Source: Candidatus Omnitrophota bacterium (GTDB lineage Bacteria > Omnitrophota > Gorgyraeia > Zapsychrales > Fredricksoniimonadaceae). Taken from it: a stretch of 64,000 bases of DNA. A model generated the notes under the pieces. The model was not told where the DNA came from. It made no database searches and saw only the letters and a list, made by a program, of their open reading frames with translations. The DNA lies in contig JAGWKL010000001.1 of the NCBI GenBank assembly GCA_028865345.1, forward strand, positions 157,489 through 221,488, read 5' to 3'. This document shows positions 1 to 21,944 of the stretch, one piece after another. Position 1 is the stretch's first letter. Every line of letters begins with the position of its first letter. The translations under genes were made by a program, and so were the position numbers.

Positions 1-940
1 GCCAATAGGCCGCCTGGCCCAACCCTAATCCCAACGCGATGATCCCCATATTCTCGACGCTGGAATACGCCAGCATCCTGCTGAAATCCTTCTGCCTTAA
101 TATAAAAACAGCGGCGACACCCAGAGACAGCACGCCCATGACCATGAGGATGGGCTCTATAAAGGAAGAAAGGTCGGCTCTGTTGCATATCTGGACCACT
201 CTTAAGATAGCCAGGATCGGGCATGCTGTCAAGGCGCCGGAAAGCAACCCTCCGATAGGGGCCGGGGACTGGGCATACGCATCAGGCTTCCAGGTATGCA
301 TAGGGGCCAAACCCATCTTGGTCCCGTAGCCGACAAGCAGGAATATAACACTCAACTTCAACCACGACGGCGTCAATACAGATGCGTGATTGAGAAGATC
401 ATTCAAAAACACGGTCTTAAAGTTGCCTGATGAAATAGCCAGCATAATGGTCCCCAAAAGGGCCAAAGCAATTCCTACCGAGCAGATCAAAACATATTTC
501 CAGGCAGCTTCCGTGTTCTGAGGACTGCGCTCAAAACTGATCAAAGGCGCACTCATCAGGGTTGTCGCCTCCAGGGCGACCCACAGCAACCCCATATGGG
601 CACTGACTGAAACCAGCGTCATGCTGGACAGTAAAAGCAGCAAGCATCCTGTAAAAATCCGGTTGCAAGCTCTTTCATTTTTCAAATAGCCCCACAGGTA
701 AACTGATACCGCGGCAAAAAGGATGCTGATGACAGTTAAAATCAGCTTGCCCAAAACATCCAACCCCAAAAATACCGGGCCGCTGCCGTTGTCCGGCATG
801 CCGCCGCTCCACAAGCCCAGCACTGCTGCCAAATGGATCGAGGCAACGCCTATCAGGAGAATCTTTCGAAGGCTGTTCTTAGGCAACACAAAAGCCAGCA
901 AGCCCCCTGAAAACGGCAGTAGGATCAGAAACAAAAGCAT
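1..940 (-). CDS. Hyf/Nuo antiporter-like membrane subunit (HyfF/NuoN/NuoM-like), 3'-partial and running off the window edge; this ORF is not in the supplied ORF track
   Basis: Manual reverse-complement translation from the ATG at 940-938. That ATG lies 2 nt after the TGA of the upstream gene. The frame reads MLLFLILLPFSGGLLAFVLPKNSL... and is polytopic and hydrophobic. It contains GTKMGLAPMHTWKPDAYAQSPAPIGGLLSG, which resembles the W/LPDA motif of NuoL/M/N. It ends ...AYSSVENMGIIALGLGLGQ, mirroring AYHSIENIGIIALGLGIG in the 659-aa neighbour. I saw no in-frame stop down to position 1. Confidence 0.55.
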   Translation of the reverse strand, partial: MLLFLILLPFSGGLLAFVLPKNSLRKILLIGVASIHLAAVLGLWSGGMPDNGSGPVFLGLDVLGKLILTVISILFAAVSVYLWGYLKNERACNRIFTGCLLLLLSSMTLVSVSAHMGLLWVALEATTLMSAPLISFERSPQNTEAAWKYVLICSVGIALALLGTIMLAISSGNFKTVFLNDLLNHASVLTPSWLKLSVIFLLVGYGTKMGLAPMHTWKPDAYAQSPAPIGGLLSGALTACPILAILRVVQICNRADLSSFIEPILMVMGVLSLGVAAVFILRQKDFSRMLAYSSVENMGIIALGLGLGQAAYW

Positions 941-942
941 TA

Positions 943-1581
943 TCAGTCCCTCAACGTTGTTAAATTAAGCGTATTGGTATCTTCGTAATCCTCGGTGATA
1001 TTATTGATCACGATGGACATCACCAGCACCGCCACAAAAATGTCCAATAATATCCCCATTTCGATCAAAAAAGGTGTTTTATCCAACAGCAACATGGAGA
1101 AAAGAAAAATACCATTCTCCATGACCAGATAACCGATGACCTGGGTAATGGCCTTGACCCTGCTGACCAACAGGAGCAATCCAATGGCAAAAATAGAGAA
1201 TGCCGCCGGTATAAATAAACGGGAAAAATACCGGTCAGGCAGCGTCAGCTTGGATGATATATAAAACGCCATCCCCACCAAAATACCGCCTAAAAGCATG
1301 GTCTTGCCGTATCCCAAAATCGTCGGGGCTTCCCGGCGCAGGCGCACGTGGCGGATGGCCCAGAATAAAAAGTTCGGCATCACAAAAACCTTCACGATCA
1401 AAGTCCCAAAGGCAATTGTCAGGACATGCCAATTAAGGCCGGCCCTGTCTACTTGCAAAGGGATGCTGCTTAGAACAAGAGATTGAAAAGCAAAAAGCTG
1501 GATGATGGTCCCTATACGGCTGCTGCCTAAAAGGACGATCCCTGAAAGAATGATGACAATTAAACTGATGTCCAGCCACAT
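943..1581 (-). CDS. small polytopic membrane subunit of a Hyf-type hydrogenase / complex-I-like module (HyfE-like, 212 aa)
   Basis: Fully hydrophobic 212-aa product of about 6 TM helices. Its size and its position between a NuoH-like and a NuoN-like gene match hyfE in the hyfBCDEF order. It is tightly coupled to the flanking genes. Confidence 0.5.
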   Translation of the reverse strand: MWLDISLIVIILSGIVLLGSSRIGTIIQLFAFQSLVLSSIPLQVDRAGLNWHVLTIAFGTLIVKVFVMPNFLFWAIRHVRLRREAPTILGYGKTMLLGGILVGMAFYISSKLTLPDRYFSRLFIPAAFSIFAIGLLLLVSRVKAITQVIGYLVMENGIFLFSMLLLDKTPFLIEMGILLDIFVAVLVMSIVINNITEDYEDTNTLNLTTLRD

Positions 1582-2503: not shown

Positions 2504-4483
2504 TTAGGTCACCTTCCAGATCAAAATGAGAAACAGAAAAATAAAAATATAAAGCACATATATCTGTGCATAGCCGCACTGGATGCTTTTCATCCGGCCG
2601 CAAACTTCCTGCATCAGACGGTATATCCTGCGCCAAAAAAAATGTTCCGAGGCATCTATGACCTCCGAGGCCACAAGCACCTTTTCAGGAAAAATTTGTT
2701 GGGGGCGTGCCTTCGCGCGGCGCAAACACAGGACCTCGCGGAAGAGTTCCACGATGGGGCTGGCAAATGAAGAGGCCGTATATTGCATACGCGGCGAGGC
2801 GGCGGCATAGCCGCACCCCCATGTCCCGGATTTTGCCACTGACATATTTTTCATGGCCATCCTTCTAAATAAAACCAGAAAAATGGATATCCCGATAAGC
2901 ACAAACAAACTGAGGACCATCCATTGAACGGGACGTAAAATATTTGCCATGTCCGCGGTATTGGTTGCTGTCGGCAAAATACGCATGGCCCCTTGCAGGC
3001 AAAAAGACACCATCGTCTGGGGAAAAATCCCGATCCAAACGCAAACGCCGGCGAGAACGGCCATAGGGGCAATCATTGGGGCGGAATTCTCTTTCAAATC
3101 CGCCGCATGCTGTGACCTTGCCTGCCCCAAAAAGACCGTGCCGAAAGCTTTGGTAAAACACATGAGCGCCAGTCCCCCGATGAGCGCCAGGGCGATGATC
3201 GCAAGCCCTATTAAAATGACCGGCTCCATCGGAAAGCTGAAAACACCTTCAAAAAGGGCCCGGTATACCAGCCATTCGCTGATAAAACCATTGAAAAGAG
3301 GCAGGCCGCATATCGCCAAAGACCCTATTAAGAACAGCGCACCGGTCCAGGGCAGATACTTTAACAACCCGCCCAAATGGTCAATTTCTCCGGTATGCGT
3401 CTGCCGGATGACAGAGCCGGCGCTTAAAAAAAGCAGTCCTTTAAACATGGCGTGATTAAAAACATGTAAAAGGGCCCCGGCATAACCGATGACGGCGATG
3501 GTATGGTATTGGTTCAATTGCCCCCAAAGACCTATCCCCAACCCCAGGGCGATGATCCCGATATTTTCAATGCTGTGGTAGGCCAATAATTTCTTGATTT
3601 CGTGCTGGCCCAGGGCGTACAAAACACCCCCGACACCGGAGACGATGCCGATGGCCGTGAGCACCGCCGGACACCATGGGGGGAAATGCTTGACCATCAT
3701 GATCAAGCGGATGATGCCATAAATACCCATCTTGATCATCACCCCTGAAAGGACAGCGGAGACATGGCTGGGCGCCGCCGGATGGGCATGCGGCAGCCAG
3801 ATATGCAGGGGAATAAACCCGGCCTTGACCCCGAAACCGATCGTCCCTAAAACAAAAACAACGCCTGCCAGCATCAAGGGGAATTGGGCCGCTGACATCC
3901 GGCCAAAATCCATGGACCCGGCCTGGGTCCCCAAAAGAATGAACATCACCCATAAACACAATGTCCCTATATGGGCGGCGATCAAATAAAGCAACCCCGC
4001 TTGCCTTACCTCTTCATTGCCGTCATGATAAGTGATAAGGAAATATGAGGAAACCGACATGCCTTCCCATGCCAGTAAAAAAAGGACGGCGTTCCGGGCG
4101 GTGACGACCAGCATGAGGGACATCAAAAAAACAAGATACAAACAAAAATGGCCGGCAATGTCCTGTTGATGTTCCCCATTCCTTAAATAGCCGATTCCAT
4201 AAACTCCCGCCAGAAAACACAGCAGTGTGACGGCCAGCAAAAATAAGGCGCTGACAAAATCGATGCCGATTGTAACCTCTCCCCAGGGCAATGACCAAGG
4301 CAGCCGGTCGACAAAACTTTCCTGCCTGATGAGGGTATCCACCGCACTGATAAAAGCAGATCCGCAACCCAACGTCAAAAATACAAGAAATACATTTTCT
4401 GCCCAACGTGGCTTATGCCTTAATAAAGCAAGACAGAGAATGCCTGCGGATAAAAGGGCCAAACTGACGGAAAAAAGGATCAT
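2504..4483 (-). CDS. NuoL/HyfB/MrpA-family proton-translocating membrane subunit (659 aa)
   Basis: Large polytopic protein with the antiporter-like core, including ...FIPLHIWLPHAHPAAPSHVSAVLSGVMIKMGIYG... and AYHSIENIGIIALGLG. Its start overlaps the upstream gene in an ATGA arrangement. Confidence 0.7.
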   Translation of the reverse strand: MILFSVSLALLSAGILCLALLRHKPRWAENVFLVFLTLGCGSAFISAVDTLIRQESFVDRLPWSLPWGEVTIGIDFVSALFLLAVTLLCFLAGVYGIGYLRNGEHQQDIAGHFCLYLVFLMSLMLVVTARNAVLFLLAWEGMSVSSYFLITYHDGNEEVRQAGLLYLIAAHIGTLCLWVMFILLGTQAGSMDFGRMSAAQFPLMLAGVVFVLGTIGFGVKAGFIPLHIWLPHAHPAAPSHVSAVLSGVMIKMGIYGIIRLIMMVKHFPPWCPAVLTAIGIVSGVGGVLYALGQHEIKKLLAYHSIENIGIIALGLGIGLWGQLNQYHTIAVIGYAGALLHVFNHAMFKGLLFLSAGSVIRQTHTGEIDHLGGLLKYLPWTGALFLIGSLAICGLPLFNGFISEWLVYRALFEGVFSFPMEPVILIGLAIIALALIGGLALMCFTKAFGTVFLGQARSQHAADLKENSAPMIAPMAVLAGVCVWIGIFPQTMVSFCLQGAMRILPTATNTADMANILRPVQWMVLSLFVLIGISIFLVLFRRMAMKNMSVAKSGTWGCGYAAASPRMQYTASSFASPIVELFREVLCLRRAKARPQQIFPEKVLVASEVIDASEHFFWRRIYRLMQEVCGRMKSIQCGYAQIYVLYIFIFLFLILIWKVT

Positions 4484-13399: not shown

Positions 13400-14542
13400 T
13401 TATTGCCAGAGCACGGAGTCAAAGCCAAGAGTGCCTGTGCATAAAATCCTGGCGATCCCTATGGAGGTAATGGCTAAAAACACTACAAAAGCTGCCTGAA
13501 GGACCGCTCCCAACCTTTTATTAAAACCTTTCAGACGCTCTATGGCCATCACTGCCAGCATCAACAGCACAGGGCAAAAGAACAACGAAGTCCGGGGGCA
13601 AACAAAGGGATATTTATGTATAGCCCCGAATATCAAATGCAGCCAAAATACGGCAAAAGCGGCCGGAACAACCGATTTAAATTCAAATCCATCCTTTTTA
13701 AACCTGCCCCAAAAAGCGGCCAGCATGTATACCAGACCCATTCCCATAAAAAGCCGGGACGGGCCCCTCATCCAATGGGGCCTTTCGGCAAACCAACGGG
13801 AGATCAAATTATTCAAATTTTTCCCTAAACTGCCGAAAAAGGCCCTCGGGGAATCAAAAGAAATAAAATAATCGTGCCAATAAACACTCAGATTATTTCT
13901 GGTAACGCTGACGTCAAAACAATAAAACACCAAAAGGGCCGATACGGCAACGCACGTATAAAGGACCAGCGGCCGCCATTGCCCTGTCCTCTTGCCGCAC
14001 AACCATAAATTCCATAAAAATAAAGGTATCCAGAACACGGATGGGTAGGAAACAAAACAAAGAAACGGCAGGACGTACCACCAGCGGCTTAAACCCCGGT
14101 ACAAACACCATAAACACAAGGCCGCAGCCAGGACATCCATGGAATATTGCTTTAATTCGGACGCATAATATACCAGCATGACCGATGCCGGCCAGCACAG
14201 GATATAAAGGCCAAGAGCGGCGCGGTCTTTGAATTCCCTGGAGGCAATGCCAAGCCACACCCCGAAAGCCGTCACCATGCAGGCAAAGGGCAGAAACCTC
14301 AAGGCCCAAAGTTGAAAATGAAAATATCCGGAAAACCGCTGGATCATCCAAAGATAAAAACGCGGAAAGGCCTGAAGATCAAGTAATGGTTTTGAGAATA
14401 AATCAACGGTGGAATAATTTTTAATGTTAAGAAAAATGCAATATTCATCGTTCCATAAAGGGCGCCGGTTGAAATAATGGAGGGTGATGAGAAAAAGATA
14501 CCAGCCGGCCAGGGACAAGCTGACATAGCGTAAAGTTTTCAT
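13400..14542 (-). CDS. polytopic membrane protein, possibly a GT-C-fold glycosyltransferase (ArnT/PMT-like)
   Basis: 380 aa with about 10 TM helices. An acidic motif RRPLWNDEYCIF in the first predicted periplasmic loop resembles the DE / DExRY motifs of GT-C enzymes. This is a weak call. Confidence 0.35.
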   Translation of the reverse strand: MKTLRYVSLSLAGWYLFLITLHYFNRRPLWNDEYCIFLNIKNYSTVDLFSKPLLDLQAFPRFYLWMIQRFSGYFHFQLWALRFLPFACMVTAFGVWLGIASREFKDRAALGLYILCWPASVMLVYYASELKQYSMDVLAAALCLWCLYRGLSRWWYVLPFLCFVSYPSVFWIPLFLWNLWLCGKRTGQWRPLVLYTCVAVSALLVFYCFDVSVTRNNLSVYWHDYFISFDSPRAFFGSLGKNLNNLISRWFAERPHWMRGPSRLFMGMGLVYMLAAFWGRFKKDGFEFKSVVPAAFAVFWLHLIFGAIHKYPFVCPRTSLFFCPVLLMLAVMAIERLKGFNKRLGAVLQAAFVVFLAITSIGIARILCTGTLGFDSVLWQ

Positions 14543-15013
14543 TTAATGATGGCAGCCGCCCGCGCCATGCACATGGCCGTGGGCCAGTTCTTCGGGCGTG
14601 GCCGGCCTTTTGGCGACGATCTCGACGGCAAAGGTCAAATCCTGCCCTGCCAGAGGATGGTTGCCGTCCAGGGTGATCTCATCGCCGTTGATGGCGGTGA
14701 TGGTGACCGGTGAGAAATCTTGCGCACGCCCCACTTCGAACATATCCCCGACTTTTATTTCGCGGTTGGGCAGGCGTGAACGGTCGACCTTATAAACGAG
14801 GCCTGCGTCATAAAGGCCGTAAGCGTCCTTGGCGGCAATGGTCACTGTTTTTTTCTCAAGAGGCTGCATGGCAAGCAATATCGTCTCCAAACCGGGGATG
14901 ATCTGGCCCTGGCCGGAAATAAAAATCAGCGGTTTGCCTTTGGCTGAGGCATCGACAACCTCGCCTGCCTTGGCCGTCAATACATAATCAAATGAAATCA
15001 CCTGGCTTTCCAT
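14543..15013 (-). CDS. slyD: FKBP-type peptidyl-prolyl isomerase SlyD with a metal-binding His/Cys tail
   Basis: 156 aa with an FKBP domain and an IF insert. The C-terminal tail ELAHGHVHGAGGCHH resembles E. coli SlyD. Confidence 0.85.
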   Translation of the reverse strand: MESQVISFDYVLTAKAGEVVDASAKGKPLIFISGQGQIIPGLETILLAMQPLEKKTVTIAAKDAYGLYDAGLVYKVDRSRLPNREIKVGDMFEVGRAQDFSPVTITAINGDEITLDGNHPLAGQDLTFAVEIVAKRPATPEELAHGHVHGAGGCHH

Positions 15014-15070
15014 GGGAAAGCATTATAACCTTCTCTTGCGCGTTGGCAAGCGATGATTTAATATGAGACG

Positions 15071-15964
15071 ATGGTTTCTCGAAACCCCAGAGTCCCGAGC
15101 CGCTTTGACCGGGGGGTGCGAACGGTCCTGGTCGGGCTTTCATCCAACATCGTCCTGGCCGCCGTCAAGGTCGCCGCCGGCATCCTGGGAAATTCTTACG
15201 CTTTGACCGCCGACGGCATTGAATCCACCCTTGATATTTTCTCCTCGGCGGTGGTCTTGGGAGGCATCAAGATCTCCGAGCTGCCCGCCGATGAAAACCA
15301 TCCTTACGGGCACGGCAAGGCCGAATCCCTGGCCGCGATGACCGCCTCCTCGGTCCTCATGATGGTAGGCCTCGGTATTGCGGTCAGAAGCTCGCTTGAT
15401 ATCCTTGAACCCCACCATACCCCCGCGGTGTTCACCCTCATCATCCTGGCCGCGGTCATCATTATCAAGAACGGGCTCTTTAAGAGGATATTTTCCGTCG
15501 GAGAATCGATCAACAGCCTGTCCATCAAGACGGAAGCCTGGCACCACCGGTCCGACGCCTGGTCATCGGCGGCCGCCTTTATCGGCATATCCATCGCCAT
15601 CCTGGGAGGCAAGGCTTATCAAAGCGCGGATGATTGGGCCGCACTGGCGGCCAGCGGGATCATTATTTTTAACGGCCTTCACATGCTTAAGGCAGCGGTT
15701 GCGGAAATCATGGACCAGGCGCCCGATCCCCAAACTGAGGAAACGATCCGCACGATCGCCGGAAAGGTGGCAGGGGTGGCCGCCATCGAGAAATGCAAGG
15801 TGCGCAAAAGCGGACTCGATTTATTTGTAGACATCCATGTGGAAGTGGCCGGTACCATGCAGGTCCACGAAGCCCACCTGATCGGTCATAACGTCAAGGA
15901 CGCGCTTATGGCATCAACTCTTGGTATCGCCGACGTACTGGTGCACATCGAACCGGCAAAATAA
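15071..15964 (+). CDS. cation diffusion facilitator (CDF) family divalent-metal efflux transporter
   Basis: 297 aa with a 6-TM N-terminal domain and a cytoplasmic C-terminal domain. It has typical CzcD/FieF features, including HPYGHGKAESLAA and WHHRSDAWSS. Confidence 0.9.
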   Translation: MVSRNPRVPSRFDRGVRTVLVGLSSNIVLAAVKVAAGILGNSYALTADGIESTLDIFSSAVVLGGIKISELPADENHPYGHGKAESLAAMTASSVLMMVGLGIAVRSSLDILEPHHTPAVFTLIILAAVIIIKNGLFKRIFSVGESINSLSIKTEAWHHRSDAWSSAAAFIGISIAILGGKAYQSADDWAALAASGIIIFNGLHMLKAAVAEIMDQAPDPQTEETIRTIAGKVAGVAAIEKCKVRKSGLDLFVDIHVEVAGTMQVHEAHLIGHNVKDALMASTLGIADVLVHIEPAK

Positions 15965-15996
15965 ACAGGGACGTCTCTCCAAAAAGGCAAAAAGAT

Positions 15997-16039
15997 GACG
16001 GACACTTTTATTAAAATAAAAGTGTCCGTCACTTTTCTT
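15997..16039. terminator. bidirectional intrinsic terminator between the convergent CDF gene (+) and the Cys-rich small gene (-)
   Basis: Perfect 16-bp inverted repeat GACGGACACTTTTATT-aa-AATAAAAGTGTCCGTC at 15997-16030. It is followed by ACTTTTCTTATTTT on the plus strand and preceded by a T-rich stretch as read on the minus strand. Confidence 0.6.
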
Positions 16040-16241
16040 ATTTTACCGCTTTAGGCGCGCTGAAGGGGCAATATTGATGGTGCCCGTACGCACAAGAACC
16101 GCCGCAATGAGACCAGGCAAACCACATACCGGCGGCAAAAATAAAAGCCCCGATGATGAGCCCGGCCAGCAGTTTCATGCCGCAACAGCAACCGCAGCCT
16201 TTTTTGGTTGAACAGCTTTCTTCTTTCTTTTCTTCGGCCAT
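16038..16241 (-). CDS. small Cys-rich membrane protein (67 aa); last gene of the efflux operon
   Basis: A strong SD (AAGGAGG) lies 5 nt upstream of the ATG. The product has an N-terminal CSTKKGCGCCCG cluster, one TM helix (LLAGLIIGAFIFAAGMWFAW) and a C-terminal HCGGSCAYGHHQYC. No family was recognised. Confidence 0.5.
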   Translation of the reverse strand: MAEEKKEESCSTKKGCGCCCGMKLLAGLIIGAFIFAAGMWFAWSHCGGSCAYGHHQYCPFSAPKAVK

Positions 16242-16270
16242 AATATCCTCCTTGGAATGGTATGGATTTA

Positions 16271-17374
16271 TTATGTCATTCTTTTGCTGAAACGTCGAAT
16301 ACTAAAAACCAGGACCAGCACCGCCATCAACAGCAAAGGCCAGACCTGGCCGATCAAATCAAAAAATCCCAGGCCTTTAAGGATAATCCCGCGCACGATG
16401 ATCAGAAAATAGGTCATGGGGATAAAATAACCGATATGGTGCACCCACAAGGGCATCGCTTCCCGGGGGAATATGAAACCCGAAAGCAAAATCGAGGGCA
16501 TGGCAAAAAACATGACGATTTGCGAGGCCTGCTGCTGGTTGTCCGCCACCGTCGAGGCCCATAACCCTATCCCTAAGCACACGATCAAAAAAATTAAGGT
16601 CATCACAAACAAGGTCACCACACTGCCGTGGATGGGAACGGCGAACAACACATGCATGACCGTGATGATGCTCGCGGCGATGATGACCCCGATGGCGATA
16701 TAGGGAAGTATTTTGCCCAGGATGAGCTCATAAGGCTTGATCGGAGTCACCAAAAGCTGCTCGATATTGCCCCTCTCTTTCTCGCGCACGATGGCCGAGG
16801 CCGTGATCATGGGGACCAAAAACTGCAGGACCAGGCCGACCAGGCCCGGAAGCATGAAATAGGTGCTTTTCAAATCAGGGTTGTACCAAAGCCGCGGCCG
16901 GAAATCGATGGGCAAGACCTGCACGGGGATCAAATGTTCATCCTGCATAAAGGCATTGACGATCGCCTGGCTGGAATTGAGCGCAACGGAAGCCGGTGTG
17001 TTGTCCGTTCCGTCGATGATCATTTGCAGTTGGGCGCCCTTTTTCTTTAATAAATCACCGGCAAAATTAGGGGGAATGACAAGAACCGCCTTGGCCATGC
17101 CTTTGTCCAAAGCCGTGTAGCACTGGCGTATGGAATTGGCGTTGACCTTGACGGTAAAATACTGGCTTTGCGTGAAAGCATCCACCAGGCGGCGGCTTAA
17201 ATACGTGCGGTCCTGGTCATAGACGTAGGTGGACAAATGCTTGACATCGGTATTAATGCCGTAGCCGTAGATCATCAGCTGCATGATCGGCATTATGACA
17301 ATCAGCATGAGCGTGCGCCGGTCACGCAAAATATGGATGAATTCTTTGAAGGCAATGGCCTTGATGTTACGCAC
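16271..17374 (-). CDS. ABC-2-type transporter permease
   Basis: 367 aa with an N-terminal cytoplasmic/periplasmic domain and 6 C-terminal TM helices, typical of ABC-2 exporter permeases. It overlaps the ATPase gene by 8 nt. Confidence 0.8.
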   Translation of the reverse strand: MRNIKAIAFKEFIHILRDRRTLMLIVIMPIMQLMIYGYGINTDVKHLSTYVYDQDRTYLSRRLVDAFTQSQYFTVKVNANSIRQCYTALDKGMAKAVLVIPPNFAGDLLKKKGAQLQMIIDGTDNTPASVALNSSQAIVNAFMQDEHLIPVQVLPIDFRPRLWYNPDLKSTYFMLPGLVGLVLQFLVPMITASAIVREKERGNIEQLLVTPIKPYELILGKILPYIAIGVIIAASIITVMHVLFAVPIHGSVVTLFVMTLIFLIVCLGIGLWASTVADNQQQASQIVMFFAMPSILLSGFIFPREAMPLWVHHIGYFIPMTYFLIIVRGIILKGLGFFDLIGQVWPLLLMAVLVLVFSIRRFSKRMT

Positions 17375-18344
17375 GATTCCCTCTTTCTTGCTCGGCGGCC
17401 GGTGGATTGAAATTGCCTCGCTTTATCCCTTGAGACAAATCGGAAAACACGTCTTCCAGCGACGCGGGGATGGATTTTATGACGGCGATCTCGATACCTT
17501 CTTTGTCGGCAGCGGCCCTGACGCGCTCTTCAACCGCCTGGCGGTCCGTCACATTCAAATTCAACGTTGTCCCGTACACCGTGACCCCGGCAACCCCTTC
17601 CAGGGACGAGAAAAAATGCGAGGCTTTCATCAAAGGACGGCACGTTACTTCCAGGATCTGGCCCTGCAGCGCCTCCTTGAGGTCCGACGGGCGCCCGATC
17701 TTCAGTATCTTCCCCTGACTAATAAAAGCAATGTTGTTGCAGCGCTCGGCCTCCTCCATATAATGGGTGGTCACAAACAGGGATGTGCCGCCTTCCGCCA
17801 GCTGGTAAAGAAGCTCCCAGATCGCCCGCCGGGACAAAGGGTCAAGGCCGGCTGTGGGTTCGTCCAGAAAAATGATCTTGGGCCGGTGTAAAATGGCATT
17901 GGCCACGGCCAGTTTTTGTTTCATACCGCCGGAAAGGTCTCCGGCCAGCCGCCTTTGGAAAGGGTCCAGTCCCGTAAGCTCCAAGACCTCTTTAATGCGA
18001 CCCAGGAGCGCCGCGCCTTCCAATCCGTAGATCCGGCCGTAAAAATTGAGGTTCTCGACGACATTCAAATCCGAATAAAGGCTGAAGCGCTGAGACACAT
18101 AGCCGATGACGGTCTTGATCTGCTCCGGCTGGGTCTCGACGTCGAAGCCGCCCACCTGCCCCCCGCCGCTGGTAGGCGCCAGAATGCCGCAGAGCATGCG
18201 GATGGTGGTGCTCTTGCCCGCGCCGTTGGCCCCTAAAAATCCGAAGATGGCTCCATAAGGAATGGCAAAAGAAATTTCATCGACGGCGGTGAACTTCCCG
18301 AATTTCCTGGTCAATTTGTCCGCGCTGATGGCGATATCCGGCAT
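17367..18344 (-). CDS. ABC transporter ATP-binding protein
   Basis: Walker A GANGAGKST, signature LSGGMKQKL and Walker B IIFLDEPTAGLD are present. It has a C-terminal extension domain. Confidence 0.9.
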   Translation of the reverse strand: MPDIAISADKLTRKFGKFTAVDEISFAIPYGAIFGFLGANGAGKSTTIRMLCGILAPTSGGGQVGGFDVETQPEQIKTVIGYVSQRFSLYSDLNVVENLNFYGRIYGLEGAALLGRIKEVLELTGLDPFQRRLAGDLSGGMKQKLAVANAILHRPKIIFLDEPTAGLDPLSRRAIWELLYQLAEGGTSLFVTTHYMEEAERCNNIAFISQGKILKIGRPSDLKEALQGQILEVTCRPLMKASHFFSSLEGVAGVTVYGTTLNLNVTDRQAVEERVRAAADKEGIEIAVIKSIPASLEDVFSDLSQGIKRGNFNPPAAEQERGNRA

Positions 18345-18353
18345 AAAATTCCT

Positions 18354-19031
18354 TTAATCAAATCTTACATCCGCGAAGGTTCCGGCATGAAGATATTGAT
18401 CGGGATGATCGACGGTGACTTTTACGGCGATGGTCTGGGTGGCGCGCTCTTCAGGGGTCTGCACGTTGCGCGGCGTGAATTCAGCCTTGTCGGCGATAAA
18501 GGTGATATGCCCCCTGTAAGGCTTCCCGGCGCCGTCTACCATAATGGAGGCGCTCTGGCCGAGGCTCAACTGGTGCACCAGGGCCTCGGACACATAGACC
18601 TTGATCCACTGATCCCTGATGTCTCCGATAACAACCACCCCTCCGCCTTGGGGGACGATCTCGCCGGTCTCAACGTCTTTGACCAAAACAACGCCGTCGA
18701 CCGGGGCAATGATCTGCTGGTCTTCCATGGTCAGCCGGTCATGTTCCACCGACTGCTGGTCAGCGCCGCCGTTTTTATAAAGCACTTCGGCGCGGTCATA
18801 ATCTTTTTTATCCTGATCAAATCGGTCGAGGGTCGCCAGAAGCTCACCCTTTTTAACATAATCTCCTTCGTCAACGTTGAGGGTCGTCAGGCGGCCGGCC
18901 ACCTTGGCGCCCAACACATGCTCGGTCAATTCCATGGTCCCGGAAAAGGTCATATGCTTGATGTCTTTAGGCTGGCTGCAGCCGCATATCAAAACGGCCG
19001 CCAATATCCCGATGAGCATGCGCACGGTCAT
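18354..19031 (-). CDS. HlyD/RND-adaptor-like periplasmic membrane-fusion lipoprotein (short form)
   Basis: 225 aa. The lipobox LICGCS is present. Biotinyl-lipoyl-like and beta-barrel hairpin segments are present (GELLATLD, APVDGVVL). Confidence 0.7.
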   Translation of the reverse strand: MTVRMLIGILAAVLICGCSQPKDIKHMTFSGTMELTEHVLGAKVAGRLTTLNVDEGDYVKKGELLATLDRFDQDKKDYDRAEVLYKNGGADQQSVEHDRLTMEDQQIIAPVDGVVLVKDVETGEIVPQGGGVVVIGDIRDQWIKVYVSEALVHQLSLGQSASIMVDGAGKPYRGHITFIADKAEFTPRNVQTPEERATQTIAVKVTVDHPDQYLHAGTFADVRFD

Positions 19032-20359
19032 TCTTCCTCCTTAAAATTAACCAACTTTCTTAAACCCCCTTGGGCATGAAGCAGATCGATGTAGGCCATG
19101 ATCCATGCGGCCCGGGCCTCATGATCATCATCTTCAGCCAAAGCCAATTGTGCTTTGGCTTGCACCACCGCCAACACCGTCCCGCTGCCCACCTGCCGGG
19201 CCTGCAAGGCTATCAACAAAGACCGTTGGGCTGTCCGTCGCTGTTGAGCCTTTGCCTGCCTTAAGTCATCGGCCTCTTCAATGGCCGCACGGGCCTTGGC
19301 GATATTGACCTCCTGCTGCTGGGTGGCATCCTCAAGATTTTCCCGGGCCTCTTTGACCTGGGCCCTGGCTTCCTTTAACCGGGCTTGGGTTCTCCCGCCT
19401 TCCCAAATGGGGACAGAGACAGTCAAGCCAACATCGTAGGTATTGCTCCCGCGTTCGGGGGAAGCTCCCGCACGGCCGTATTCGGCGCTGCCTGATATTT
19501 TGGGCAAGAAATCCGCATAGGCGGTTTTCTGGTCGGCCTTAAGCGACTCAAGCTGCCAGGTAGCCATGACCACATCGGCATTCGCCCGGGCCCCGGAATT
19601 GCCCTGTGCGTTTTTTTCCATGGCCTTTAAAAAATCGTTATCGTCGACGAATACCAAAGCTCTGCCCAACGGTATTTGCAGGGCCGCCTCCAGGTCCAGA
19701 CAGGCATCTTGCGCCTGCTGCCCGGCCTGGGCCAATAAATATTGAGTTTGCTCTAAATCTGATCTGTCCTTACTGGTATCCAGCTGCGTTCCTGTGCCCT
19801 GGCTGAGACTCTCCTGGCTTAACCCATAGGCCATGCGGTCCCTTGCCAAAAGGGCTTGCAGGAGCTTGACGGTCTGCTGCTTGCGTTGGGCATCAATAAA
19901 CAGGTCCGCTACCAGGGCCAAAACATCCTCACGTGTTTTTCCCGATTCTGCTTCGGAGAGCTTTTCTCCCTTTCGGGCCGCTTGAAATCTTGCAAGAGCG
20001 GAAAAATCGAAAATCGCCATGGTCACACGGGGCCTGGCATCAAAATTGTTATATGGCCCTACGTGGGGGTGCAAACCGGGGAGGGATAAGCCTTCCGAGC
20101 GCAAGTCCGCGGTCTGGCGTCCGCCGCTGACCGTGCCGTCAAAGTGCGGCAGTAAATCCGCCTGCGACTCAGCAATGCGGGCAATGGCCTGCTCAACGCG
20201 GGCATTGGCCATCAGCACCTGCAGATTGATGGTATCCGCGCTTTGCAAAGCTTTTTCCAAGGTCAACCGGAGAGGGGCCGCAGGGCCCTGCCGGGCCATC
20301 AGGGGCCCGGCGAAGCATCCGGACAAAAAAACCAAAGTAAAAATTTTGGTCTTATTCAT
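19028..20359 (-). CDS. TolC-family outer-membrane efflux protein
   Basis: 443 aa with a signal peptide and two repeated coiled-coil / beta-barrel TolC halves. It is the first gene of the four-gene exporter operon. Confidence 0.8.
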   Translation of the reverse strand: MNKTKIFTLVFLSGCFAGPLMARQGPAAPLRLTLEKALQSADTINLQVLMANARVEQAIARIAESQADLLPHFDGTVSGGRQTADLRSEGLSLPGLHPHVGPYNNFDARPRVTMAIFDFSALARFQAARKGEKLSEAESGKTREDVLALVADLFIDAQRKQQTVKLLQALLARDRMAYGLSQESLSQGTGTQLDTSKDRSDLEQTQYLLAQAGQQAQDACLDLEAALQIPLGRALVFVDDNDFLKAMEKNAQGNSGARANADVVMATWQLESLKADQKTAYADFLPKISGSAEYGRAGASPERGSNTYDVGLTVSVPIWEGGRTQARLKEARAQVKEARENLEDATQQQEVNIAKARAAIEEADDLRQAKAQQRRTAQRSLLIALQARQVGSGTVLAVVQAKAQLALAEDDDHEARAAWIMAYIDLLHAQGGLRKLVNFKEEE

Positions 20360-20433
20360 GGATTTTATTCTAATCTTTTAAACAGTACAATTCAACCAAC
20401 CCGGTCAGAAGTTTTTCTTTGGGAATTACGGCC

Positions 20434-20761
20434 CTACCTTGCGATCCCGACTGTTTCCTGGAAATATTTTTTAAATTCAACAGCGTCAAGCATAAATTCC
20501 GCGACAGCCTTACGTGAAAGAGAAAGTCCGCCCCGGGGAAGGCCCTCCTCTTGACTGCGGTACTTGGTCATGGCCCCGCAGGCAATGGATCAATTGCCCT
20601 TCATCCGTAAGGTCCCCTTTTTCGACCCTAAGCCTTTTATGCCGCTCAAAGGCCTTCTCAGGAGAGCGTACGAACGCGGTGACGTGGTTCCCTCTTTCTA
20701 ATCCCTGCAAAACGACTTCGCGGCCGGTGCGGCCGGTGGCGCCGATAACCAATAGTTTCAT
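20434..20761 (-). pseudogene. remnant of an NmrA-like / NAD(P)H-binding SDR-family gene with an internal deletion and frameshift
   Basis: The 83-aa ORF begins with a Rossmann motif MKLLVIGATGRTGREVVLQGLERGNHVTAFVRSPEK... and degenerates after GHD. The conserved C-terminus ...EEGLPRGGLSLSRKAVAEFMLDAVEFKKYFQETVGIAR* is read in a different frame, ending at 20434. The whole remnant spans about 330 nt, against about 630 nt expected. Confidence 0.55.
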
Positions 20762-20780
20762 GGCTGCCTCCTGTCCTGAA

Positions 20781-21332
20781 TTACTTCTTGCCGCCGACTG
20801 CGCAAAGCATGTCCGAATGGATGTTAAGCCCGATGTTGGTCATATTGTAAAGGTGTTCACTGGCCACCAGCCAGACGATCTCGCAGATCTGGCGTTCGGA
20901 ATAATGTCGGGCCATGCGCGCAAATACCTCCGGGGCCGCTTTTTTATCCATGGTCAAGCGGGTCGCATAGTCCAGGGCCGAACGTTCGGCATCGGAAAAG
21001 AGAACGCTTGTGGCATACTGGTCCAAAGCATCGAATTTGGCCCGGTCCATCGAAGTCTGGATCACGAACGACCGGGCTATGTCGACGCAAAAAGAACAGA
21101 CATTCATGCGTGCCACCTGGGTACGGATGAGCATGGCCGTCTCCGGCGGTAGTGACAATTGCTTATCCAACTCGCTGATCTTGGAGTAGAAAAGGCCGAA
21201 AGCCGGCGGCAGGCGCGCGCTGAACACCATAAGCGGGGTGAGCACCTTGCCGAACCGTTTACGCGTGAAATGATAGGCCAGCTTCAACATCAGGCCCGGG
21301 GGATTTTCGACAGGGGGAAGAAATGCTTGCAT
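20781..21332 (-). CDS. carboxymuconolactone decarboxylase (CMD / AhpD-like) family protein
   Basis: 183 aa, soluble. The CxxC-type region (VCSFCVDIA) and its length fit the AhpD/CMD superfamily. Confidence 0.6.
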   Translation of the reverse strand: MQAFLPPVENPPGLMLKLAYHFTRKRFGKVLTPLMVFSARLPPAFGLFYSKISELDKQLSLPPETAMLIRTQVARMNVCSFCVDIARSFVIQTSMDRAKFDALDQYATSVLFSDAERSALDYATRLTMDKKAAPEVFARMARHYSERQICEIVWLVASEHLYNMTNIGLNIHSDMLCAVGGKK

Positions 21333-21374
21333 ATAACCATCTCCTTGCTTGTATCATTAGTTACATATATGAAC

Positions 21375-21391
21375 AATTCACTATGTGAATT
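21375..21391. promoter_or_regulatory. perfect palindrome in the divergent MarR/CMD promoter region (candidate MarR operator)
   Basis: AATTCACtatGTGAATT at 21375-21391, within the 111-nt divergent intergenic region. Confidence 0.45.
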
Positions 21392-21443
21392 ATACATCGA
21401 TAAATCCTATGCGCAAAGTGTATTTTTATGGTATGATGAATCC

Positions 21444-21944
21444 ATGCCGCTTCATAGCAACCTGAAAAATGACCTGAAAGGCCGGGGACAAATCGCTTTT
21501 CTTCTGTCCCAAATCGGCGCCCATGTGGCGTATAAATTCGCGGAAAAAATCCGGCCGCTGGGCCTTTCCCCGGCCCACGGGGGGATCATCAGGTTCTTGG
21601 GCCGATCCGGCGGCATCAGCCAGAAAAAACTCTGTACAGGGCTTGCCATTCTTCCCAGCCGCCTGGTCGTGTTGATGGATGAACTCGAAGAAAAAAAGAT
21701 TGTAGAGAGGCGTAAAGACCCGAAGGACCGGAGAAACTATGCCCTTTATTTGACCAAAAAAGGCGCGCATCTGCTGGGCGGGTTGAAAAAAATCGCCGGT
21801 GAGCATGGCGATCAGGTGTGCAAAGGTCTCAAGAAATCAGAACAAAAAATATTGGGAGAGATCCTTTCCAAAATTATCGAAGCCCAAGGCCTTACGCCGG
21901 GTATCCATCCTGGGTTTAAACGCCTGGGAAAGCCCGAATGTTGA
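21444..21944 (+). CDS. MarR-family transcriptional regulator
   Basis: The 167-aa product starts at the ATG at 21444; the ORF-track start at 21159 lies inside the divergent gene. The MarR winged-helix is recognisable (LSPAHGGIIRFLGRSGGISQKKLCTGLAILPSRLVVLMDELEEKKIVERRKDPKDRR). Confidence 0.8.
   Translation: MPLHSNLKNDLKGRGQIAFLLSQIGAHVAYKFAEKIRPLGLSPAHGGIIRFLGRSGGISQKKLCTGLAILPSRLVVLMDELEEKKIVERRKDPKDRRNYALYLTKKGAHLLGGLKKIAGEHGDQVCKGLKKSEQKILGEILSKIIEAQGLTPGIHPGFKRLGKPEC

Follow-up and report, generated by a model that had tools for sequence, protein, structure and literature searches.

A 64,000-nucleotide stretch of a Candidatus Omnitrophota genome (contig JAGWKL010000001.1, positions 157,489 to 221,488; hereafter the window, to whose numbering all coordinates without a locus name refer) carries, at positions 16038-16241 of the minus strand, an open reading frame (ORF) for a 67-amino-acid Cys-rich protein with a single transmembrane (TM) helix. 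Here, we show that this ORF is a genuine gene under purifying selection, that it belongs to a family of small, Cys-rich membrane proteins, not described before and so far seen in one phylum, which resembles known families in general design only, and that its link to a neighboring ATP-binding cassette (ABC) exporter is a lineage-specific juxtaposition and not a functional unit. The small gene is probably autonomous, with a strong ribosome-binding site (RBS) and a terminator of its own and, probably, its own promoter. As for function, we tentatively favor a membrane-tethered, metallothionein-like metal binder that would buffer metal or pass it to efflux or chaperone proteins; metal binding, topology and the identity of the partner are what we infer from composition and gene context.

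The N-terminal tail of the product, MAEEKKEESCSTKKGCGCCCGMKLLAGLIIGAFIFAAGMWFAWSHCGGSCAYGHHQYCPFSAPKAVK, spans residues 1-22 and holds a CC / CGCCCG cluster, with CGCCCG at residues 16-21. It is followed by one hydrophobic helix (approximately residues 19-46) and by a tail containing H45, C46, C50, H54, H55 and C58, the last within a C58-P59 motif. The CGCCCG cluster, single TM helix and His/Cys-rich tail read from the DNA letters by an earlier note on this locus (the original prediction) are thus borne out by the product sequence. The original prediction was to count as refuted if syntenic relatives lacked the ORF or the Cys pattern, and both were found to be conserved. Selection was estimated from 16 distinct coding sequences of the window's subfamily. 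The proportion of differences is 0.69 at synonymous sites (pS), which are near saturation, against 0.23 at nonsynonymous sites (pN), and the median ratio of nonsynonymous to synonymous substitution rates (dN/dS) is about 0.19. By segment, pN/pS rises from 0.21 in the hydrophobic part to 0.34 in the N-tail and 0.54 in the C-tail, indicating that the TM helix is the most constrained; within the subfamily it includes 12 consecutive invariant residues. Because of this conservation and of the dN/dS value, the ORF is taken as a real gene, and a chance ORF is ruled out.

A word-indexed search recovered 12 relatives of 58-71 residues with 49-100% identity, of which the three annotated ones are all named Candidatus Omnitrophica. 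The profile built from these relatives was compared with 1.84 billion cluster representatives and gave 49 matches at E<=1e-3, all but one of them 40-97 and almost all 55-97 residues long, and a second search from a 58-sequence alignment gave 77 matches. Metagenomes were also scanned with a variable-gap DNA pattern beginning ATGA; only about 13 of its 62 matches are family members, many others being N-termini of ribosomal protein L7/L12-like and other proteins, with TGYTGY out of frame. A scan of one genome per GTDB species yielded 12 loci, all labelled as Candidatus Omnitrophota or as 'uncultured Planctomycetales' metagenome-assembled genomes with the same gene order. For the contig of the most divergent group (group c, see below), the named best matches of the ribonucleotide reductase are all from Omnitrophota, at 62-73% identity. 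The family therefore looks specific to Omnitrophota, to which all organism names available for its loci point. Neither the window protein nor any of the 58 aligned members matched Pfam (at E<=5) or NCBIfam beyond scattered noise below threshold, for instance CopL_fam (3 of the 58, E=0.003), and the profile search of the PDB returned nothing but matches to TM helices with E>1. Small membrane proteins are systematically missed by annotation, and here a family conserved under purifying selection across an uncultured phylum has no Pfam or NCBIfam entry and no structural relative.

Members share a three-part signature. The N-terminus reads M-[ST]-E-E-K-K-[ED], followed by a variable Cys/Gly/Ser/Lys stretch with CC...CC(C) and then (K)K; the middle consists of about 20 hydrophobic residues with a near-invariant Gly; and the C-terminus shows K..C, 5-15 residues, (M)CP and a short His- or Met-rich tail usually ending in K. 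In the alignment, M1 and C18 are invariant, and at least 90% of the sequences share C10, K23, G38, C46, C58 and P59. Among 112 members, the N-tail is composed of 18% Cys, 18% Lys, 16% Gly, 15% Ser and 12% Glu, with 4.5 Cys on average, and all but one (111) have a CC pair there, the number and spacing of the Cys varying freely from member to member. The C-tail of the same members contains 10% Cys, 9% Pro, 8% Met and 6% His. All but four (108) have a CP pair; 52, like the window protein, have at least two His, 30 have at least three Met (e.g. MGKMCPMGGNMGGGSMMESK), and some tails read MGKMCPMGGNMGGGSMM. AlphaFold2, given the family alignment, predicted a single helix at residues 19-46 (pLDDT 85-90) between two disordered tails.

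In order to see what accompanies the small gene, its neighbors were mapped in about 45 loci, about 30 of them distinct (designated by L numbers). In the window's own subfamily (group a, helix motif GAFIFA[AS]GMW), about 14 distinct loci show an ABC-2 permease gene, the small gene and a convergent gene for a cation diffusion facilitator (CDF), as in the window. Throughout group a, except in L030 and L094, no more than 200 nt separate the CDF gene from the small gene, of which it is the most constant neighbor in this subfamily. In the window it is found at 15071-15964 on the plus strand and encodes a FieF/MamB-like cation-efflux protein with Cation_efflux and ZT_dimer domains (TIGR01297, 209.7 bits). 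After this generic CDF model, MamM (162 bits) and MamB (153 bits) fit best, with cut-offs of 350 bits; the NCBIfam MntE and FieF models also match, below the FieF cut-off. These scores suggest an Fe/Mn/Zn-type protein rather than a ZitB/CzcD-type one. The candidate magnetosome assignment was rejected, 162 and 153 bits being below the curated threshold of 350. Beyond the CDF gene, in the same orientation as the small gene, lies a gene for a SlyD-type FKBP peptidyl-prolyl isomerase (14543-15013, minus strand; Pfam, PRK10737) with the tail HGHVHGAGGCHH. Group b (L013, L018 and L067; 40-43% identity) has neither the exporter nor a CDF gene nearby. There, genes for a ParA-like ATPase and a MamF/MmsF-like protein are followed by three unknown genes, then by the small gene, a terminator and SlyD. 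The group b SlyD is an orthologue of that of the window, with 62% identity and an identical tail, so that SlyD with an HGHVHGxGGCHH tail accompanies the small gene in both groups. In group c (L015, L017 and L070; 31-34% identity), the stop codon of a TetR regulator gene overlaps the start of the small gene, which is followed by a hairpin and an HtrA/DegP protease gene; the TetR protein is closest to AcuR/CurR models, and upstream are found a cupredoxin and FTR1, or NnrS.

The persistence of CDF and SlyD neighbors, together with the Cys/His/Met chemistry of the tails, is what leads us to the metal-binder reading. Other neighbors related to metals are an ArsR-type regulator in L004 and, near the group c gene, the cupredoxin with FTR1, or NnrS. 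In the mechanism that we propose, the protein would insert N-in/C-out. Its cytoplasmic N-tail of about 22 residues, acidic and Lys-rich with vicinal CC pairs, would form a thiolate site at the inner face of the membrane, suited to soft or borderline ions such as Zn, Cd, Cu(I) or Fe(II). The conserved helix with its invariant Gly could serve for self-association, for docking on a membrane partner or for both, the leading docking candidate in group a being the adjacent FieF-like CDF. The periplasmic tail, K..C...(M)CP with His and Met, could provide a second metal site or a redox-sensitive switch. Metal would then be buffered at the membrane or passed to the CDF or to SlyD, and the protein would have no role as subunit or substrate of the ABC exporter. 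A cytoplasmic N-terminus is favored because Lys and Arg are more frequent on the N-terminal flank of the helix (2.4) than on the C-terminal one (1.4). The same topology fits a protein encoded at L033, which has a similar N-terminus and helix before a SIMPL/DUF541 domain; SIMPL/DUF541 proteins such as BP26 and YggE are periplasmic. With this topology, the thiol-rich tail would be placed in a reducing compartment and the tail with Met, His and two Cys in the periplasm.

Several observations weigh against this reading. The protein shows no homology to any known metal-binding family in Pfam, NCBIfam or the PDB. The CDF gene is convergent and is therefore not co-transcribed with the small gene; moreover, it does not adjoin the small gene in groups b and c or in L030. 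All loci come from one phylum, in which a gene order inherited from a common ancestor, and not a functional link, may account for the conserved neighbors. The positive-inside signal is modest, the N-tail having about 3.6 acidic residues as well. The group c TetR resembles AcuR/CurR-type regulators and not known metal sensors, and Cys clusters could equally be used for redox sensing or iron-sulfur (Fe-S) binding. The idea of a metal-binding peptide, or of a metallochaperone linked to the CDF, had figured among the candidates of the original prediction; with its Cys/His/Met content and its CDF and SlyD neighbors we infer it to be the best fit, the part that specifies the CDF being weakened by the convergent orientation and by the lack of this gene beside the small gene in distant relatives.

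A bolder version of the metal-binder reading, to which we give only a slight chance of being right, would make the family a trans-membrane metal relay, oligomerizing through the helix with its invariant Gly, in which the periplasmic Cys/His/Met site is coupled to the cytoplasmic thiolate cluster and feeds, gates or senses for the CDF and SlyD. Such a relay might serve a phylum-specific module for iron or other metals or for biomineralization. This idea stems from the fact that all three contexts contain families used in magnetosomes (CDF, an HtrA-type protease and a MamF/MmsF-like protein); Omnitrophota include magnetotactic members. SlyD itself might assist the folding of the small protein, the analogy being protein E of phage phiX174. 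That would require the conserved Pro to be cytoplasmic, in conflict with the topology preferred here.

The closest functional analogue of a membrane-tethered metal binder of this kind would be PacL1 (Rv3269) of M. tuberculosis, which binds Zn and acts as chaperone/scaffold for an exporter, the CtpC pump; PacL proteins have an N-terminal TM segment, cytoplasmic Glu/Ala repeats and a C-terminal His/Asp motif, and are encoded in an operon with a P1B-ATPase (PMC9374683). The likeness lies in the small size, the single membrane pass, the short motif for metal binding and the position beside a metal efflux pump. However, there is no sequence similarity, the Omnitrophota family has an N-terminal Cys cluster and a second Cys/His/Met tail across the helix, and the pump in the window is a convergent CDF and not a P1B-ATPase of the same operon. 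Membership in PacL/DUF1490 was rejected, with no Pfam match, no Glu/Ala repeats and no P-type ATPase at the loci. A second comparison is with the FeoB-associated Cys-rich protein (PF12669), encoded downstream of feoB, which consists of a helix and then a C-terminal Cx3-5Cx2-3Cx6-8C motif and has a presumed metal-binding role (PMC8749426). Both are small (about 50-60 residues in PF12669), with one TM helix and a Cys-rich segment, and are found beside a metal transporter. In PF12669 the helix comes first, whereas the Omnitrophota family has the reverse order and vicinal CC pairs; PF12669 follows feoB in Firmicutes and Bacteroidetes, whereas the Omnitrophota family occurs without feoB. PF12669 membership was therefore tried and rejected on two counts: neither the window protein nor any of the 58 members gave a profile match (E<=5), and in architecture the main Cys cluster precedes the helix, with no FeoB domain in the loci for which gene tables were available. 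If the metal-binder reading with CDF and SlyD is true, the Omnitrophota protein would be a third unrelated small membrane-anchored partner of metal transporters, beside PacL and the FeoB-associated Cys-rich proteins, and one short enough to be synthesized as a peptide for direct metal-binding tests.

Looser resemblances concern the tails. Metal pumps and sensors carry Cys-rich N-terminal metal-binding extensions, such as CCCDGAC in ZntA, and the CC, CGC and CCC runs of the family N-tail resemble the thiolate-cluster ligands of such extensions and of metallothioneins. The Omnitrophota protein differs from metallothioneins in being membrane-anchored and far shorter, and matches neither SmtA/BmtA nor any other such family. 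Membership in SmtA/BmtA was rejected, since there is no Pfam, NCBIfam or PDB match and a TM helix is present, the likeness lying in Cys-rich composition only. MerF, MerT and MerE are likewise small membrane proteins in which vicinal Cys pairs at the cytoplasmic face pass a soft metal; these Mer transport proteins have two or three TM helices and belong to mer operons. What the Omnitrophota protein has in common with them is small size, membrane location and vicinal Cys pairs. It has a single helix and no sequence similarity to them, and no mer genes are found at the locus.

A rival explanation, which we consider rather unlikely, is that of a regulatory or redox-sensing protein similar to MgrB. 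Single-pass proteins of fewer than 70 residues such as MgrB, AcrZ, MgtS and the KdpF type dock through a conserved helix on a bigger membrane protein, and MgrB has two functionally important periplasmic cysteines. By this account, the helix of the Omnitrophota protein would modulate a larger membrane protein (a transporter, a sensor or a PAS-GGDEF-EAL protein), C46 and C58 would form a thiol-disulfide switch responding to envelope redox, and the N-terminal Cys cluster would be a second redox switch or a Zn switch. The TM helix is indeed the most conserved segment, as is typical of small proteins docking on membrane partners, nearly all members have two Cys about 8-15 residues apart after the helix, and the group c gene is translationally coupled to a TetR gene and lies beside the envelope-stress protease HtrA. 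However, no partner could be identified, a sensor kinase is not a regular neighbor, and the Cys/Gly/Ser/Lys N-tail, with its average of 4.5 Cys, and the Met/His tails look more like metal ligands. There is also no homology to MgrB, AcrZ, MgtS or KdpF, which are without a Cys-rich cytoplasmic tail.

We find it quite unlikely that the protein is a membrane-anchored mini-protein for an Fe-S or another cofactor, in which a TM dimer would gather at least eight N-terminal Cys for electron transfer or for iron sensing beside an Fe(II)-type CDF. The at least four conserved N-terminal Cys per chain would allow for this, the CDF fits the FieF and MamB/MamM iron-type models best, though below their cut-offs, and Omnitrophota are largely anaerobic. 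Vicinal CC and CGC are nevertheless atypical spacings for Fe-S ligation, CxxC or Cx2Cx2C being usual, and the free variation in number and spacing of the Cys is more in keeping with a flexible thiolate cluster than with a defined Fe-S site.

The gene order around the small gene could suggest another function, that of an accessory subunit of the exporter. The operon (16271-20359, minus strand; Pfam and NCBIfam) is composed of genes for an OEP/TolC protein (19028-20359), a short HlyD-type adaptor (18354-19031), a DrrA/NodI-type ABC ATPase (17367-18344) and an ABC-2 permease (16271-17374), and it stands upstream of the small gene in the window's lineage only. The gene order of the original prediction, TolC-HlyD-ABC-permease-small ORF on the minus strand with a convergent CDF gene, is confirmed by the ORF coordinates and by Pfam and NCBIfam, and so is the distance of 29 nt, on the same strand, from the permease stop to the start of the small ORF. 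No terminator was found in this 29-nt gap, so that calling the small gene the fifth gene of the operon is fair for the window. A co-transcribed fifth gene could encode a subunit of the ABC-2/HlyD/TolC exporter, as AcrZ does for AcrB, and the small gene does start 13-60 nt past the permease gene in the window and in some 14 related loci, on the same strand and with no terminator between them. The comparison of loci makes this barely credible. In L011 the exporter operon has been deleted, only the last ~40 nt of the permease gene being left, and the small gene is intact and the CDF gene retained. In eight loci, 0.8-7.5 kb of unrelated genes separate the two: blocks of 5.5-7.5 kb in L024, L028, L029 and L031, and inserts of 0.8-1.3 kb, three of them 0.8-1.0 kb, in L025, L053, L057 and L078. 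Finally, the small gene occurs without an ABC operon nearby in group b (L013, L018, L067), in group c (L015, L017, L070), in L030 and in L094. In L030 it stands alone, with a divergent PEGA gene on one side and ppx/ppk on the other. In L094 a cyclopropane-fatty-acid (CFA) cluster and MscS precede the small gene, and an FMN reductase, CDF and FKBP follow it; the 8 kb retrieved upstream contain no ABC operon. Since the operon can be deleted, separated or absent, the small gene is not tied to the exporter: co-occurrence fails, and the accessory-subunit candidate is largely refuted by this comparative context. Whether orthologous exporter operons carry a similar peptide had been put forward as a check, and it is answered by the ~14 loci that do and by the persistence of the small gene where the operon is missing or distant. 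For genome scanning, the case shows that a small gene read as the last of an operon can be autonomous and do no more than adjoin it.

Least probable of all, and rejected, is the reading that the gene encodes an exported or modified peptide precursor (a ribosomally synthesized and post-translationally modified peptide, RiPP, or a bacteriocin) handled by the adjacent exporter, as had also been proposed: a conserved N-terminal heptapeptide, MSEEKKE, does precede a Cys/Ser/Thr-rich segment in the manner of leader and core, and an exporter adjoins in this genome, but none of the ~30 loci has a modification enzyme or a C39-peptidase ABC transporter, the neighboring transporter is of the ABC-2 (DrrAB / YbhFSR-like) type according to NCBIfam, the gene is a single-copy, syntenic, phylum-wide resident that persists without the operon, and the hydrophobic helix, not the leader, is best conserved, unlike the variable core of a RiPP.

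The expression signals of the small gene were then considered apart from the operon. A Shine-Dalgarno sequence, AAGGAGG (16247-16253, minus strand), is found 5 nt before its ATG, and a strong one precedes every homologue. The RBS had been described as the best in the region; it is strong, and only the HlyD site equals it. A promoter-like site, TCGACG-17 nt-CATAAT with a TG (extended -10), lies at 16270-16298 on the minus strand, where it overlaps the end of the permease gene (last codons and stop). It may serve the small gene as a promoter of its own, a function predicted from its sequence. This TCGACG-17-TGgCATAAT element is retained in L011 despite the loss of the remaining ABC operon. More generally, boxes resembling a -10 element, TGnCATAAT / TGATATAAT, recur 25-50 nt ahead of the small gene at loci with unrelated surroundings, the L011 remnant among them, and because of this recurrence the small gene probably has transcription of its own in addition to read-through. 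A strong Shine-Dalgarno sequence, a -10-like box and a downstream hairpin are found together in most contexts, and the small gene is usually the last one before the hairpin. In L003 (7944-8000) and L007 (1596-1657), G+C-rich hairpins without a T-run (e.g. CCCCTCCCctggcGGGAGGGG) lie between the permease stop and the RBS of the small gene. They may be processing or attenuation sites uncoupling it from the exporter operon.

The 73 nt between the stop codons of the small gene and of the CDF gene contain a hairpin at 15991-16036. Its core, 15996-16031, is a 16-bp perfect palindrome with the 4-nt loop TAAA and T-runs on both strands; the stem of 16-17 bp has six G-C pairs, and the tails are CTTTTTGCCT (minus) and CTTTTCTTAT (plus). 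Folding energies are -27.6 and -26.5 kcal/mol (z about -8.8), and none of 200 shuffled sequences was as stable. These features support a bidirectional intrinsic (Rho-independent) terminator common to both genes, as proposed in the original prediction. This holds for the present genome; a conserved terminator element had to be rejected, because at the same junction the hairpins of relatives differ in sequence or are missing. In the scan of 14400-21500 with Rfam, the only matches were hairpin look-alikes below threshold. At the junction of small gene and CDF gene, L004 carries an unrelated perfect palindrome of about 45 bp (2596-2716) and L007 an unrelated one of 24 bp (1874-1942). The small gene and the CDF gene overlap or almost abut in L001, L003 and L012. 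The clean 16-bp terminator thus belongs to this locus and is not conserved, and long AT-rich bidirectional terminators seem to have been reinvented repeatedly at the convergent junction.

Some observations on the loci themselves can be added. The blocks inserted between permease and small gene are of a cyclopropane-fatty-acid-synthase-like type, DUF1475 / DUF1295 / CMAS / amine-oxidase / (DUF1365) / CMAS; such CMAS-type blocks occupy 1462-8925 in L024, 2843-8985 in L028, 3453-8874 in L029, 2134-7563 in L031 and 1911-7035 in L094. In L011 (ENA contig_137503, 3400-3530), a hairpin with T-runs precedes the permease remnant. This contig is rich in frameshifts, with the CDF gene split across three frames and PEGA and GT2 genes split as well, which are probably long-read errors. 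In L013 (4879-7962), L018 (4842-7968) and L067, the small gene closes a conserved array; the ATPase of this array is ParA/MinD-like with an AMPK1_CBM/CBM_48 domain, and its three proteins of 140-170 residues have no above-threshold Pfam or NCBIfam match, one showing a weak, sub-threshold EF-Tu domain 2.

Within the window, a motif search found no paralogue of the small gene. Upstream of the exporter operon are a 183-aa ORF with a CSFC motif and no Pfam match (20781-21332, minus strand) and a divergent ORF with a MarR domain, listed at 261 aa (21159-21944, plus strand). As listed they overlap by about 170 nt, so that at least one start is probably mis-set. These two ORFs could be regulators of the exporter operon.

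Finally, N-termini similar to that of the family were found on other proteins. The L033 protein (387-1160, minus strand of the locus) has 257 residues and consists of MTEEKKECCETKSCC and a TM helix, then the SIMPL/DUF541 domain. Its candidate link to the family comes from the similar N-terminus, and Cys-rich N-tail and helix together may form a membrane anchor that can be carried from one protein to another. L077 (start about 10917, minus strand) and L084 encode a putative CsoR/RcnR-like repressor, so read from its sequence, that begins MSEEKKDCCCG, and L083, from the same DNA pattern scan, encodes a 105-aa protein beginning MSEEKKECCGHDECGCGHEHDHECGCG. Similar Cys-rich N-terminal tags are thus carried in L077, L084 and L083 by apparently metal-related soluble proteins.

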